Shown: positions 1 to 4,149 of the stretch, piece by piece
How positions within the stretch are numbered: the stretch's first letter is position 1
Layout of the letters: each line of letters begins with the position of its first letter
IMG/VR virus record: IMGVR_UViG_2667527789_000016
DNA: 4,955 bases
Source of the DNA: a virus
Taxonomy: Duplodnaviria; Heunggongvirae; Uroviricota; Caudoviricetes
Reading direction: 5' to 3' (one strand)
Made by a program: the position numbers and the translations under genes
The notes under the pieces: generated by a model
What the model was told of the DNA's origin: nothing
What the model saw: the letters and a program-made list of their open reading frames with translations, nothing else
The model's database searches: none

Positions 1-1425
1 GTGGAATTATTCAGATTCACTAAAGTAAAAATTGCAGAACTGCCAACGCCGGAGCATGGGCAGGCCGAATATGGTGATACGGAGGTTAACGGGCTGCGTG
101 TCCGTGTAGGTTCGTCAGGTGTGAAAAGTTTCTGCATTTCCCGTAAGCGTAACGGAAAATTTATTCGTGCAACGCTGGGGCGTTTTCCTGATCTGAGTGT
201 GGACAATGCCAGGGCTAAAGCTATGGAGCTTCTCGGAGAAGTAGCCACAACGGGGATAAATCCGAACACAGCGAAACGCATGAACAACAAGGCCATGATA
301 ACGCTGAGTGAGGCACTTGAAGCCTACATAAAAAATCGTGGCCACCGTCTTAAACCCGCCACAGAAAAACAGTACCGCAGCATATTACAGAATTATTCCG
401 GTGACTGGATGGCGCATACCCTCGCTAGTATTTCCCGCGAACGTGTGGAACAACGGCATAAGGCCATCACTGATGGGGCTGTATGGTTCGGTGCTGATAA
501 AACCACGTTACGGGCTGGTGTTGGTACAGGAAGCAAGGCACAGGCCGATTTATGGGCGCGTGCGCTGCGTGCTGTGTGTCGGTTTGCGCATGATCATTAC
601 CGTGATGATGCGGGTAATACTCTTTTACCGGATCCGCCGACTCTGGTACTGAGCACCAAACGCCAGTGGCACGGAACGGTAAGAAAAACGGAACGTATCC
701 GTCTGCATGATTTTCCCCGTTGGTTTGCTGCTGTAGCTGCTGTACGTGACCAGGGCGAACAGGAAAGGGATGATATAGCGGTTACGGTATGTGATGCCGT
801 GGAAATGGCGCTTTTTACCGGACTGAGAAAATCAGAAATTTTTGGCCTTACGTGGGATCGCGTGAATATGGGCGGTCGTTTTTTCTGGATAGACACCACG
901 AAAAACGGGGATCCGCTCGAATTGCCGATTACTGATACGTTGCGGGAAATGTTCCGCCGCAGGCTGAAAATAAAAAACGCTGATGATGTTCTGGTGTTTC
1001 CTGGTGTGAAGGGAGTGATTCAGGAGACACGGCACATCATAGACCGGATAAGCGCGGCTACCGTTCCAGAGTCGAACGATGAAATGCTCTCCCCTGTACC
1101 ATTCAAATGGCACGATGCGCGCCGGACGTTCGGGACGGTTGCCGAACTGGTGGGCGTGGGTAATTACATCCTCAAGCGCCTGATGAATCACCGCACTATG
1201 CGAAGTGCTGACGTAACGCAGGGGTATTTACATTTTGGTGCTGATGAACTGCTGGAGCCAGCGTCACGGATAGAACGGGCAATTCTGGAGCATGCCGGGC
1301 TGGTGGAGAGTAAAAAATCTATCGATGCGCAATTGCTTTCTGCACTGGAGAGCATGGACGATGATGAAAAACGCCAATTAATTTTCAAAATCATAAACAA
1401 AAATTTAGAGGTATCGTCTAAATGA
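1..1425 (+). CDS. int: Tyrosine site-specific integrase (phage/P4-type, N-terminal arm-binding domain plus catalytic domain); possibly 5'-partial, GTG at position 1
   Basis: 474-aa ORF. The N-terminus (FTKVKIAELP...GLRVRVGSSGVKSF...RATLGRFPDLSVDNARAKA) resembles the arm-type DNA-binding domain of phage integrases. The C-terminal half carries the catalytic signature: R in TGLRKSE, H-x-x-R in KWHDARRTF, and a candidate catalytic Tyr in TQGYLHF. The true start may lie upstream of the window. Confidence 0.9.
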   Translation: MELFRFTKVKIAELPTPEHGQAEYGDTEVNGLRVRVGSSGVKSFCISRKRNGKFIRATLGRFPDLSVDNARAKAMELLGEVATTGINPNTAKRMNNKAMITLSEALEAYIKNRGHRLKPATEKQYRSILQNYSGDWMAHTLASISRERVEQRHKAITDGAVWFGADKTTLRAGVGTGSKAQADLWARALRAVCRFAHDHYRDDAGNTLLPDPPTLVLSTKRQWHGTVRKTERIRLHDFPRWFAAVAAVRDQGEQERDDIAVTVCDAVEMALFTGLRKSEIFGLTWDRVNMGGRFFWIDTTKNGDPLELPITDTLREMFRRRLKIKNADDVLVFPGVKGVIQETRHIIDRISAATVPESNDEMLSPVPFKWHDARRTFGTVAELVGVGNYILKRLMNHRTMRSADVTQGYLHFGADELLEPASRIERAILEHAGLVESKKSIDAQLLSALESMDDDEKRQLIFKIINKNLEVSSK

Positions 1426-2175: not shown

Positions 2176-2388
2176 GTGGAGTTACTTGTGAACCTAATCA
2201 ATTCTCAAGAAAAAATGACCCGCAAAGAAGCCGCCGAGCATTTGGGGGTAAGTGTCCAGACTCTTGCTAACTGGGCGCATACTGGCAAGGTAAAAATCCC
2301 TTTCCATAAGCTGGGGCGCAAAGTGCTGTATATGCGCTCTGATCTCGATACTTATCTTGCATCCACTCGCAGAACGCAGACAGCGTAA
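2176..2388 (+). CDS. Small HTH DNA-binding protein of the excisionase/AlpA/Vis type (start may be the in-frame ATG at 2215)
   Basis: The sequence TRKEAAEHLGVSVQTLANWAHTGKVKIPFHKLGRKVLYMRSDLDTYL fits the excisionase-family HTH pattern (helix-turn-helix, then a Gly-Arg wing, then an acidic DxxL motif). It lies immediately downstream of the integrase, as in many integrative elements. GTG 2176 has a weak AGG at 2168-2170; ATG 2215 has no clear SD. Confidence 0.75.
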   Translation: MELLVNLINSQEKMTRKEAAEHLGVSVQTLANWAHTGKVKIPFHKLGRKVLYMRSDLDTYLASTRRTQTA

Positions 2389-2408
2389 GGGGGGAGCGAT
2401 GCACATAA

Positions 2409-2434
2409 CAAAAAGCGCCCCGTTACCGGAGCGC
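2409..2434 (-). other. GC-rich hairpin (GCGCCCCG-TTAC-CGGAGCGC, 7 of 8 bp) with a U-run on the minus strand; terminator-like in minus orientation, possibly also serving the upstream plus-strand gene
   Basis: Stem 2415-2422 / 2427-2434. The plus strand has CAAAAA (2409-2414) before the stem, so the minus-strand RNA has stem followed by UUUUUG. Contains the CGCCCCGTTAC motif repeated at 2891-2923. Confidence 0.35.
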
Positions 2435-2530
2435 CCTTGCGAACAATTAACCTGCTGCGAAAAAATTGGATCAGTGCAGGGGAATTATATCAACTGTGTG
2501 AAGAAGCGCCACAATTGCCGGATAACAGGC

Positions 2531-2558
2531 AAAGAAAAGGCCACCTGTCACGGTGGCC
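2531..2558 (-). terminator. Rho-independent terminator of the minus-strand small gene
   Basis: Stem GGCCACC (2539-2545) / GGTGGCC (2552-2558) with a 6-nt loop. On the minus strand the stem is followed by TTTTCTTT (complement of 2531-2538). It sits about 30 nt downstream of the stop of the 2769..2590 gene. Confidence 0.55.
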
Positions 2559-2589
2559 AATGTGATCAGTGTGGTGGTTTGCTGGTGGA

Positions 2590-2769
2590 TTATTCCGCTT
2601 CTTTGGTCTTGCGGCGCTGGCGGCGTTTTATTTCGCCGCGCATGGCAGTAACGATAAATTGCGCGTCTGTTTCGTTTTCTTCTTTTACCAAATTCATTTC
2701 ACTTAAAACGTCTAGAGGTACTCTAGCTGTTTTTTGTTGTGACTTGTTGTTTGTTGTACCTGTTGGCAT
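2590..2769 (-). CDS. Small basic protein (59 aa), putative DNA-binding regulator of the element (candidate repressor); function unproven
   Basis: ATG (complement of 2767-2769) is preceded by AAGGAG at 8-nt spacing (complement of 2778-2783). Protein is MPTGTTNNKSQQKTARVPLDVLSEMNLVKEENETDAQFIVTAMRGEIKRRQRRKTKEAE with a strongly basic tail. It has its own terminator (2531-2558) and is divergent from the plus-strand operon. The longer 117-aa ORF (to 2943) would run through the operator and hairpin region and is not favoured. Confidence 0.6.
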   Translation of the reverse strand: MPTGTTNNKSQQKTARVPLDVLSEMNLVKEENETDAQFIVTAMRGEIKRRQRRKTKEAE

Positions 2770-2795
2770 CTCTGTTCTCCTTACTGTTAGGTGGT

Positions 2796-2835
2796 GTTCA
2801 GTATACGGAGAAAAAAAAATAAAAAAAGACTTGAA
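2796..2835 (-). promoter_or_regulatory. Candidate promoter for the minus-strand small gene (-10 TATACT, T-rich upstream tract)
   Basis: Minus-strand TATACT (complement of 2800-2805) lies about 30 nt upstream of the ATG. A long T-tract on the minus strand (plus-strand A-run 2809-2827) could act as an UP element. No good -35 hexamer, so this is weak. Confidence 0.3.
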
Positions 2836-2880
2836 GTGCAAGTCACCTAAAAGTAATCTAGATTTCAAGGTGACTTGCAC
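2836..2880. promoter_or_regulatory. Operator-like perfect inverted repeat GTGCAAGTCACC-N21-GGTGACTTGCAC with a perfect palindrome AATCTAGATT in the spacer
   Basis: Arms 2836-2847 and 2869-2880 are exact reverse complements (12/12). The spacer holds a 10-bp perfect palindrome at 2855-2864. It lies in the divergent intergenic region between the small regulator gene and the plus-strand operon. Confidence 0.45.
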
Positions 2881-2883
2881 CAA

Positions 2884-2923
2884 AAAGGCAACGCCCCTTA
2901 CTGTTGGGCCAGTAACGGGGCGT
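2884..2923 (-). other. Long GC hairpin (13-bp stem with one bulge, 6-nt loop) followed by a U-run on the minus strand; terminator-like or leader RNA structure
   Basis: ACGCCCCTTACTG (2891-2903) pairs with CAGTAACGGGGCGT (2910-2923). The plus strand has CAAAAAGGCA before the stem, giving UGCCUUUUUG after the stem on the minus strand. Shares the CGCCCCGTTAC motif with 2415-2434. Confidence 0.35.
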
Positions 2924-2959
2924 CTAACCACAAACGATAGCAATAGTATCGAGGTAGCT

Positions 2960-3166
2960 ATGTTAAATCATATCACACACCCGCAAGGGCGGGACTCACA
3001 CAACCTGAATAAATACATCTGGCGTTTTATCGCCCTGAGCACGGCACAACCGCGCGTAATCCACATCGAGGCCACCAGCGAACAGGAAGCACGCCAGCAA
3101 TCCCCGGCTGGCTGCGTGATGGTATTCGCTGCCCGTATTCGCCAGGAGGTAGGCCATGTGCAATAA
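2960..3166 (+). CDS. Hypothetical small protein (68 aa), first gene of the plus-strand operon
   Basis: ATG 2960 with GAGG at 2951-2954. It is the in-frame tail of the 2357..3166 ORF after excluding the part that overlaps the regulatory region. Its stop overlaps the next gene start by 11 nt. Confidence 0.45.
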   Translation: MLNHITHPQGRDSHNLNKYIWRFIALSTAQPRVIHIEATSEQEARQQSPAGCVMVFAARIRQEVGHVQ

Positions 3167-3395
3167 AACCACACCGGACGCAGCAGCCGCCGCGCTCACT
3201 ACGCTGATGCACGCGCTTATTGATATTTCTGTTATTGCTGACATGGCGCATAAGCACGCCACCAGTGAAACAGAATATGCAGGGGCTTTCGTTCCTCATT
3301 CGCTGGCGGTTATGCAACTTAGTGCTGATATGGCTCTGAATGAGGCCAAAGCTATCCTGATTGCTGATTGTGAAAATGGGGGGGGTTATGCGTGA
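3156..3395 (+). CDS. Hypothetical small protein (79 aa)
   Basis: ATG 3156 preceded by AGGAGG (3144-3149) at 6-nt spacing. Overlaps the upstream and downstream ORFs in a coupled arrangement. Confidence 0.55.
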   Translation: MCNKTTPDAAAAALTTLMHALIDISVIADMAHKHATSETEYAGAFVPHSLAVMQLSADMALNEAKAILIADCENGGGYA

Positions 3396-3609
3396 TGATC
3401 GTTTTAATTCCCTGAAACAGGAATTTTCCGGCGTTCCTGATGATGCGGCTGATGCGCTTTCGTCAATATCTGAAATTATGCGGGTGGCTTTTTTCTTTCT
3501 TTGCACTGATGAGCACAGAGATACAGGGCTAAATATTCTTGATATTGCCGCTAACTATGCTGATTTCGTGACAGAGGTTATTTTAAGAAAAGCGACGGAC
3601 GGGGATTAA
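3388..3609 (+). CDS. Hypothetical small protein (73 aa from ATG 3388; alternative starts at 3376 or TTG 3361)
   Basis: ATG 3388 overlaps the stop of the upstream ORF (ATGCGTGA) and follows a G-run (3378-3385). The stop at 3607-3609 is one nt before the next start. Confidence 0.5.
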   Translation: MRDDRFNSLKQEFSGVPDDAADALSSISEIMRVAFFFLCTDEHRDTGLNILDIAANYADFVTEVILRKATDGD

Positions 3610-3610
3610 T

Positions 3611-3844
3611 ATGCGTGATATTTACCACGAAACAACAGATCGCGTATTTCTTGCACTTTCTCACAGTGAAAATATGATGGAAATATTGCGCATATGGCTT
3701 GAAACACTTGGCGACAATGAACGCGACAAACAAAAATCAAGAATTGTCACGGCATTAATAACGCTTCTTGAGCCTGTAATAATGGAAATACAAGAAATAG
3801 ACCAATTGCACGACAGATATAACGAACAGCACACCGGAGAATAA
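3611..3844 (+). CDS. Hypothetical small protein (77 aa)
   Basis: ATG 3611 preceded by GGGGA (3601-3605). Shares the initiation context GGGG-TTA-ATGCGTGAT with the preceding ORF. Confidence 0.55.
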   Translation: MRDIYHETTDRVFLALSHSENMMEILRIWLETLGDNERDKQKSRIVTALITLLEPVIMEIQEIDQLHDRYNEQHTGE

Positions 3845-3849
3845 AAATA

Positions 3850-4149
3850 ATGAAACTTAAATATTCTGGCTTAACTGCCAGTGGCAACACTCACCCTAAA
3901 TTTACGCGCGGTGATATTTACCGCGACCAGTACGGCGGCACGGTAATGATTAAGGGCGTGGCGGGACGGTGCGTAACTTACCGCCGTGAAGGTTACGAAT
4001 ATGATTGCGTGATGCCTGTTTATCAGTTCCGGCGTGATTTTTCTCTGGTACAGACCGCGCCGCATAACGTGCCCACCAGCAACGCCAGGGCACGGGCAAA
4101 CATCCAGAAGCTGAAAACCATGATTAACGGATTCAGGGGTAAACAATGA
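3850..4149 (+). CDS. Hypothetical protein (99 aa)
   Basis: ATG 3850 with GGAG at 3836-3839. Its stop overlaps the start of the downstream ATPase gene (ATGA at 4146-4149). Confidence 0.55.
   Translation: MKLKYSGLTASGNTHPKFTRGDIYRDQYGGTVMIKGVAGRCVTYRREGYEYDCVMPVYQFRRDFSLVQTAPHNVPTSNARARANIQKLKTMINGFRGKQ

Follow-up and report, generated by a model that had tools for sequence, protein, structure and literature searches.

Minus-strand terminator hairpins and candidate regulatory RNAs in the control region of an Escherichia coli phage satellite

Hairpins of the control region

The DNA considered here, a window of 4955 bp, belongs to an integrated phage satellite of Escherichia coli, of the phage-inducible chromosomal island (PICI) type, and forms its left end. 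Its control region (2400-2975) contains three GC-rich hairpins, a small regulator gene and an operator-like repeat, and reaches into the first codons of a gene for a host cell division inhibitor-like (Icd-like) protein, here called icd. The hairpins exist and are kept in relatives by compensatory change, with selection acting on the fold of the minus-strand RNA, and two small blocks within the region are conserved, with -10-like elements whose distances are fixed. From these features, we think it rather probable that the region is a lysogeny/induction switch with three short tandem units on the minus strand, each closed by its own terminator.

The genes around the hairpins are arranged in two rightward groups with a leftward gene between them. 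The first group comprises a tyrosine integrase gene (int), orf206 and a gene for an AlpA/Vis/excisionase-like helix-turn-helix (HTH) protein, which ends the block and is annotated in relatives as a helix-turn-helix protein. The regulator of the YlcI/YnfO family is encoded on the minus strand. The icd-like gene, whose counterparts in relatives are annotated alike, opens the second group, an operon that goes on with three small open reading frames (ORFs), a DUF4222 protein and the start of a RepA/AAA_25 helicase gene (Table 1).

Relatives, designated by L numbers, were gathered from a set with one genome per species, from IMG/VR (160 loci) and from E. coli genomes. The one-genome-per-species set gave 8 loci, from Escherichia ruysiae and seven other genera (Cedecea, Citrobacter, Enterobacter, Rahnella, Superficieibacter, Intestinirhabdus and Rosenbergiella). 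The control stretch 2390-2960 is present, whole or in part, in 1362 of 5426 complete E. coli genomes, about a quarter, with at least 80% of the stretch in 127, and single genomes have up to six places that match the control region. Versions of the icd leader are present in seven other enterobacterial genera. At 80%, the window in one piece was found in no complete E. coli genome. Since relatives share it blockwise, with borders near 2407, 2588 and 2900-2923, the region is a mosaic.

Table 1. Features of the window, with positions, strand and the observations that define them
Feature	Position	Strand	Description
Tyrosine integrase	1-1425		
orf206, 206-aa protein	between int and the HTH gene		weak HTH_32 match; C-terminal proline run APPPPPDKK (1971-1995)
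AlpA/Vis/excisionase-like HTH protein, 70 aa	2176-2388	+	Pfam HTH_17, 4e-13; NCBIfam excisionase family, 4.4e-11
Predicted terminator T1 (hairpin 1)	2406-2438; stem 2411-2438, core 2415-2434	-	U-tail encoded by plus-strand A-run
Candidate sRNA-1, about 70 nt	2406-2477 (start near 2477, end about 2408 at T1)	-	block conservation
14-mer CGCCCCGTTACCGG	2416-2429; inverted copy 2909-2922		one mismatch; sequence repeat scan
Predicted extended -10 promoter of sRNA-1	2484-2492	-	TGATATAAT; consensus and conservation
Predicted terminator T2 (hairpin 2)	2531-2558; stem 2539-2558	-	GGCCACC/GGTGGCC; terminator scan; tail TTTTCTTTG / UUUUCUUUG
YlcI/YnfO-family regulator, 60 aa	2590-2772	-	NCBIfam NF041551, 5.3e-17
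Putative rightward promoter	2831-2880		-35 TTGAAG 2831-2836, 17-nt spacer, -10 TAATCT 2854-2859; read from sequence
Operator-like inverted repeat, perfect, 13 bp	2836-2848 / 2868-2880		arms GTGCAAGTCACCT / AGGTGACTTGCAC
Predicted terminator T3 (hairpin 3)	2880-2923; stem 2891-2923, 13 pairs	-	interrupted U-tail TGCCTTTTTGG / UGCCUUUUUGG
Candidate cis-antisense RNA as-icd, about 80 nt	2881-2961 (start about 2960, end 2882)	-	complementary to AUG, Shine-Dalgarno sequence and 5' untranslated region of icd
Linker, conserved, single-stranded	2924-2934	-	minus UUUGUGGUUAG / UGGUUAGA; plus CTAACCACAAA
Hairpin H4	2935-2951	-	CGATA/TATCG stem, 7-nt loop 2940-2946; abuts icd Shine-Dalgarno GAGG 2951-2954
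Icd-like (host cell division inhibitor-like) protein	2960-3166	+	NCBIfam NF033153, 6.4e-20
Predicted extended -10 promoter of as-icd	2967-2975, icd codons 3-6	-	TGATATGAT

In their general build, the three hairpins differ in nothing from intrinsic terminators: each has a GC-rich stem of 7-14 pairs, a loop of 4-6 nt and a U-rich tail, encoded by the A-runs that stand before the stems on the plus strand (2409-2413, 2531-2538 and 2882-2886). A terminator consensus scan finds hairpin 1 on the minus strand, with 12 pairs and the tail TTTTTGTT, and its fold is far more stable there (-20.4 kcal/mol, z -3.4) than on the plus strand (-11.0 kcal/mol). The same preference holds for all 13 distinct variants of hairpin 1 (mean difference -8.7 kcal/mol), which form 2-4 G·U pairs on the minus strand and none on the plus strand; compensatory variants of the stem include GCGC/GCGC, GCGGC/GCCGC and CCCAG/CTGAG. 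Hairpin 2 folds with -15.7 kcal/mol, sits 31 nt past the stop codon of the YlcI/YnfO regulator gene and is the terminator of that gene. In relatives its stem is kept while the loop varies, compensatory GGCGACC/GGTCGCC versions occur, and the version in L032 pairs on the minus strand only, by way of G·U.

The most extensive evidence comes from hairpin 3. Every icd-like gene of the relatives is preceded by a hairpin at this position, with widely different sequence and the pairing kept. In an alignment of 65 distinct sequences, 95.7% of the cells in paired columns are paired and 13 of 19 pairs show double changes; none of 500 shuffles matched any of the five measures applied, and controls slid along the alignment were 34-52% paired. 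Read on the minus strand, the paired columns contain 141 G·U pairs, whereas the plus strand has none and shows 194 non-pairs instead. A second, independent set of 36 distinct sequences repeats this asymmetry (83 G·U pairs against 0). Because a G·U pair reads as C·A on the other strand, the minus-strand RNA must be the molecule under selection. The energies agree: the window's hairpin 3 folds with -26.4 kcal/mol (z -3.0) on the minus and -21.7 kcal/mol on the plus strand, and 42 of 43 distinct variants favour the minus strand, the mean difference being 5.5 kcal/mol. The hairpin is missing from the strict terminator scan because its minus-strand tail, TGCCTTTTTGG, is interrupted. In all variants the tail is U-rich (mean 5.7 U per 10 nt) and interrupted, for example as UUGCCUUUUU or UUUCGUCGUUUC; the tail of the rrnB T1 terminator has interruptions like these.

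Given the U-rich tails, the compensatory changes and the G·U pairs confined to the minus strand, all three hairpins are very likely intrinsic terminators of minus-strand transcription, as predicted from sequence. A previous sequence-only reading of this DNA had placed the hairpins and their A-runs correctly and had taken them for terminator-like on the minus strand. The covariation analysis that it proposed has now been run across relatives, with the pairing found to be kept by compensatory changes, and 'tandem or insulating terminators' was the closest of the three interpretations it offered. What it missed is that a small conserved transcription unit appears to end at hairpin 1 and another at hairpin 3.

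Candidate RNAs closed by T3 and T1

The unit ending at T3 is the candidate antisense RNA as-icd, whose predicted fold reaches -33.0 kcal/mol (z -4.8). A covariance model of this element, R1, recovers it from every related locus searched, each time in front of icd and on the minus strand, and matches nothing other than icd leaders. The model also matches L013, on which it was not trained (51.7 bits), and 80 new loci; it gave no match in satellite P4, with filters off. Upstream of the terminator hairpin in the direction of its transcription, the predicted RNA contains two further conserved parts. In the linker, positions T39, G40, G41, T42, A44 and G45 are invariant among the 65 sequences, which span eight genera. 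The stem of H4 is 100% paired and three of its five pairs show compensatory changes (CGATA/TATCG against CGTTA/TAACG, for instance). Its loop is hypervariable, with 14 versions in the 57 leaders of the window's family between near-identical flanks, a signature of diversifying selection or of frequent patch recombination. In other families the H4 loop bears an anti-Shine-Dalgarno CUCC; in the window's family it is the stem that abuts the Shine-Dalgarno sequence. Across the 57 leaders, the 14 H4 loops and 23 types of hairpin 3 occur in 44 combinations around a near-invariant linker and H4 stem, and hairpin 3 types assort independently of operator type. An outer helix between the 5' end of as-icd and the linker was predicted for the window alone and rejected, being unsupported by the alignment fold.

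The promoter predicted for as-icd lies within the first codons of icd. All 18 distinct families of icd 5' ends keep a minus-strand TAnnnT, either at icd nucleotides 13 to 8, where it is accompanied by TGn, or at nucleotides 19 to 14. L071 carries AACTAT in place of AATCAT, and hence its -10-like hexamer reads TATAGT.

Seven islands (L095, L103, L142, L164, L166, L172 and L173) have two tandem copies of the leader element, and in 7 of 7 the hairpin tops of the two copies differ. The copies in L095 lie at 555-642 and 1422-1509; the upstream one is followed by a truncated icd' (MAIKEHSLLFIHTQTPRKRNNPFHS*) and a second minus-strand set of regulator genes. It looks as if a new regulator module had been inserted into the 5' end of icd.

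The second candidate RNA, small RNA 1 (sRNA-1), ends at T1 and belongs to a block (2407-2558, from the U-tail of T1 through T2) that is 82-99% conserved among about 30 distinct island variants. Conservation begins exactly at the T1 tail despite five unrelated upstream contexts, and between T1 and the end of the AlpA/Vis-like gene, which is convergent with the unit, there is a gap of about 20 nt. The predicted extended -10 element (TGATATAAT / ATTATATCA) is kept in 22 of 23 distinct full-length variants, the remaining one (L056) having GTTATATCA. In divergent rows of the alignment, TATAAT or TAAAAT stands at the same place in six of seven (not in L093), the 5' part being otherwise unrelated. 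The RNA would begin with a variable 5' third, continue with the conserved core GCAGCAGGUUAAUUGUUC and finish with T1. Any transcript reading through from alpA, which has no plus-strand terminator of its own, would be complementary to it. Hairpin 1 was also considered as a paralogue of the icd-leader element and dropped, R1 giving no match in 2400-2600 with filters off.

Two kinds of sequence recur near this block in many relatives. One is a palindrome with 6-bp arms, GTGGCG-CTT-CGCCAC (for example in L002 and L003), at the place of window positions 2496-2514; it coincides in part with the -35 area of the promoter predicted for sRNA-1 and could be a regulator binding site, the window's version being degenerate. 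The other is a 72-nt insertion directly past T2, at 2558/2559 of the window (about 3164-3235 in L002; also L004).

The same stretch has attracted gene calls on the plus strand. The ORF 2399-2569, whose equivalents the Prokaryotic Genome Annotation Pipeline (PGAP) calls 'partial Icd-like' (L001 11399-11569, L002 3004-3237), was rejected as a gene: it has no match to a profile hidden Markov model, most substitutions in it are non-synonymous, and several relatives lack its ATG. A 269-aa ORF (2357-3166, plus strand) runs without a stop through all of the regulatory region, sharing the frame of icd and lying antisense to the regulator gene; its counterpart in L003 has 342 aa (2915-3943). The pseudogene calls arise because the reference proteins are such ORFs reading through into icd. 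The long read-through ORFs are annotation artefacts, and 'partial Icd-like' calls beside the HTH gene are not to be taken as genes.

Neither RNA unit has a counterpart in the collections consulted. Rfam 15 holds no family for the three hairpin regions (in the window at E<=10, and in 20 related loci at the gathering score); the matches below threshold were terminator look-alikes such as isrD and MicA. The searchable literature on PICI, AlpA, Icd-like and YlcI proteins in connection with antisense or small RNAs yielded no description of the two units. They are thus new to Rfam and to that literature, while the immunity regions of phages are well known to contain cis-antisense and small RNAs, the kind to which the two would belong.

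The probable operator and the rest of the island

Between the regulator gene and hairpin 3, the perfect 13-bp inverted repeat is probably the operator of the YlcI/YnfO regulator, judging from sequence; the same pair of operator and regulator recurs in L053, L057, L068 and L090. The hexamers of the putative rightward promoter in this repeat are not listed by the strict promoter scan of the window. Upstream of the regulator gene, the minus strand also has a fourth terminator-like hairpin, a weak one with 6 pairs (2828-2844; feature 2808-2844). It shares sequence with the left arm of the operator, and a long run of T comes after it (GAAAAAAAAATAAAAAAAG on the plus strand, 2808-2827). In relatives, the YlcI/YnfO gene is replaced by other small minus-strand genes, encoding HicB-like or hypothetical proteins.

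The island as a whole has the gene content of a PICI. We took as defining features an integrase, an AlpA-type regulator and a replication gene, with a capsid and a small terminase in addition for capsid-forming PICIs (cf-PICIs), in elements of about 10-17 kb. The window contains int, the HTH_17 protein and the AAA_25/RepA helicase; the right end of this particular island falls outside it. The closest match in a complete E. coli genome, with 98.7% identity across 65% of the window, goes on with genes for a primase, a single-stranded DNA-binding protein (SSB), a major capsid protein, a decoration protein and a small terminase, and is a capsid-forming PICI. The sole relative in the phage database is itself a cf-PICI-like element: LR881103 ('Escherichia phage vB_KppS-Ant', L013), a 16.5-kb record deposited as a phage, whose gene content (int, primase, capsid, portal, terminase, tape measure protein) resembles that of a capsid-forming PICI. 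Its leader element, as matched by the covariance model, lies at 8890-8976, inside an annotated 'hypothetical protein' coding sequence (8182-9156). Elsewhere in the window, the start of orf206 and the stop of the integrase gene overlap in ATGA (1422-1425), and relatives have other genes in place of orf206.

A proposed switch, its alternatives and its relatives

How might these elements work together? In the switch that we propose, the rightward operon, from icd through the replication genes, would start at the promoter in the 13-bp repeat, to which the small regulator would bind. The YlcI/YnfO gene would be transcribed leftward from the operator region as far as T2. A promoter in the first icd codons (TGATATGAT, 2975-2967) would give rise to an RNA of about 80 nt that comprises H4 and the long hairpin and ends at T3, and the extended -10 element TGATATAAT (2492-2484) to one of about 70 nt that ends at T1. 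As-icd could then pair with the icd leader of transcripts that escape repression, probably through loop-loop contacts at first, hiding the Shine-Dalgarno sequence and AUG. Pairing would keep the toxic Icd-like protein from being translated and, through polarity, lower expression of the genes behind icd, the replication operon. The Icd homologue of P1 blocks cell division. The terminators would at the same time keep leftward transcription in bounds, T3 shielding the operator, T2 the regulator gene and T1, together with T2, the convergent int-alpA block.

It seems to us somewhat likelier than not that dedicated regulatory RNAs, each with its own promoter, end at T3 and T1, as the sequence suggests. 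Several observations weigh against it. The strict promoter scan lists neither of the two predicted promoters, both of which rest on consensus and conservation, and the -10-like hexamer of as-icd overlaps conserved His-Thr/Ile codons, so its conservation may in part reflect protein-coding constraint. The U-tract of T3 is interrupted. Hairpin 3 also folds on the plus strand, with -15 to -22 kcal/mol, and could thus act in a sense leader. Finally, a crude duplex scan of the window for a trans target of sRNA-1 gave best energies no better than those of shuffled RNAs.

Alternatively, hairpin 3 might be a pure insulator against pervasive or read-through antisense transcription from anywhere in the rightward operon, halting it ahead of the operator and the regulator gene, with no dedicated promoter or RNA, and T1 and T2 a tandem double stop for the regulator gene. 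A plain terminator would place the minus-strand fold under the same selection, the two promoters are predictions outside the strict scan, and T1, about 100 nt past T2, is placed like a back-up terminator. Yet we consider this explanation unlikely. The roughly 45 nt from T3 to the icd AUG hold a second covarying hairpin, with a fixed stem and a hypervariable loop, as well as an invariant linker; the -10-like hexamer keeps a fixed distance in 18 of 18 icd 5' families; and the T2-T1 interval contains the near-invariant TGATATAAT and a conserved 45-nt core, neither of which a spacer needs. We give still less credence to a role of hairpin 3 in the plus-strand icd leader, be it as an mRNA stabiliser, as an attenuator or protein site, or as a reduced processed RNA of the C4/CI kind. 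The hairpin does lie in the predicted 5' untranslated region, where P4 and P1 carry the C4/CI RNA upstream of icd, its plus-strand fold is stable, and the conserved TCTAACCA follows it. Against this stand the G·U asymmetry, replicated in the second set, the poorer plus-strand fold of nearly all variants and the lack of a plus-strand U-tract after hairpin 3; moreover, neither RF01695 nor RF03163 matched the window at E<=10, with the CI RNA of P4 recovered as a control at 74.9 bits (gathering score, 45).

The remaining alternatives depend on the 14-mer shared by hairpins 1 and 3. A repeat scan confirmed that it recurs inverted with 13 of 14 positions matching, as the sequence-only reading had it, and allowing one mismatch it occurs twice in the window against 0.01 expected, a count reached by none of 200 shuffles. 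The near-copy ACGCCCCTTACTG at 2891-2903, which had been counted as a further copy, is present and is simply the opposite arm of hairpin 3, not a separate element. The view that the copies bracket the regulator module, and would be conserved in related elements, did not survive the comparison: paired copies occur in none of the other loci fetched (94 loci), and of 35 combinations of hairpin 1 with hairpin 3 only the window's has the 14-nt match. The others reach 6-10 nt at best (median 7), owing to the common GCCCCG base of the two GC-rich stems. Near-identical hairpin-1 blocks occur with at least three types of hairpin 3 (window, L001 and L079), and L053, L057, L068 and L090, which come closest to the window in the regulator-operator module (88% over 2590-2880), bear yet another.

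Two functions had been offered for the repeat. In the style of seqA, seqB and seqC, the long-range pairing elements that P4-type satellites use, the motif copies could pair in RNA and so set immunity, the T1 hairpin invading hairpin 3 or the two minus-strand RNAs pairing with each other. The complementarity is far above random expectation within the window, but the two sites do not co-vary, no other combination has a match longer than 10 nt, both copies are buried in stable stems and the window contains no RNA of the C4 family; we therefore hold such pairing to be very improbable, even if expecting RNA control at a P4-like position was a fair intuition. More improbable still is an invertible or excisable cassette carrying the regulator and its promoter, with the 14-mers as its ends. 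The inverted repeat does flank a module of about 480 bp, and mosaic breakpoints lie near 2407, 2588 and 2900-2923; however, in all 56 matches of the module its orientation relative to icd is the same, no invertase is encoded nearby, and recombination in conserved flanks explains the breakpoints; the types of hairpin 3, the loops of H4 and the operators are combined independently of one another. The 14-mer, though real, is specific to the window's island and in all likelihood has no function of its own, as far as sequence can tell. The most plausible view is that it came about through mosaic assembly, which brought together two GCCCCG-type stems that share TTAC by chance.

The proposed antisense switch has close parallels in phages and plasmids. 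Like P22 sar, as-icd would be a short leftward cis RNA with a promoter at the start of its target gene and complementarity to the ribosome-binding site of that gene, ending at an upstream intergenic intrinsic terminator, beside the small repressor genes of an immunity region. One defining trait of this type is found here: a small terminator-closed unit, H4 plus T3, selected on the minus strand, lies opposite the icd Shine-Dalgarno sequence, AUG and 5' untranslated region. The target differs, being ant in P22 and a satellite icd-like gene here, and so does the hypervariability of hairpin and loop; the RNA, moreover, is a prediction here, whereas sar, a small antisense RNA of immI, is said to have been proven experimentally by Liao, Wu, Susskind and colleagues in 1987.

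The C4/CI RNAs of P1, P7 and P4 (RF01695, clan CL00128; targets RF03163) offer a second parallel, since they too lie upstream of an icd-like and downstream of a Vis/AlpA-like gene. Sar acts on ant in the manner proposed here, and C4 has the same functional effect on icd and ant in P1: the ribosome-binding site of icd is masked by the regulator, and heteroimmunity results from differences in the loops, as between P1 and P7. C4/CI RNAs are, however, encoded on the sense strand, cut by RNase P from the operon transcript and equipped with separate a and b target sites, whereas the fold selected here is on the opposite strand and is accompanied by a protein repressor module. The C4/CI covariance model matched neither strand of the window at E<=10 and none of 20 related loci, and the only candidate for co-varying target boxes of the C4 type (a1b1/a2b2, seqA/seqC) is the pair 2416-2429/2909-2922, absent from relatives. 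In P4 (L094), the CI RNA sits between a Vis/AlpA-like gene and P4's own icd-like ORF. The latter, an unannotated ORF on the minus strand (8170-8365, MATTLTPSHPEFVFVFAAV...AARLPVVEVSRA), directly follows the CI RNA inside the historical 'cI gene product' coding sequence. Because this ORF adjoins the CI RNA, an RNA element directly in front of an icd-like gene is common to P1, P4 and the PICIs.

Antisense-controlled plasmids form the third parallel. R1 CopA/CopT and ColE1 RNA I/II likewise have mirror-image sense and antisense stem-loops with conserved stems and variable loops, and in such plasmids loop differences set specificity. They control replication primers or rep translation, and kissing and specificity are only proposed here. 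By analogy, a heteroimmunity role for the loop differences between islands would be a reasonable possibility. Taken further, a cis-antisense RNA would gate the icd/replication operon of enterobacterial PICIs, with H4 and hairpin 3 as the kissing-loop specificity determinants of a heteroimmunity system. Loops would then diversify and recombine so that co-resident islands, up to six per E. coli genome, avoid repressing one another, and the system would be an opposite-strand replacement of the C4/CI immunity of P1 and P4, with sRNA-1 as a further undescribed layer. We put this extended version forward tentatively, as a possibility that is more doubtful than the switch itself.

The silencing and switching of Gram-negative PICIs and cf-PICIs are poorly understood, and the searchable PICI literature mentions AlpA and unnamed repressors, with no RNA layer. 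Should the two RNAs not be real, three ordinary terminators and a chance repeat would remain. If both are real, they would add a level of RNA control to a very common class of phage satellites and provide a mechanistic link to the immunity of P1 and P4: icd would be guarded by RNA in both, here from the other strand.

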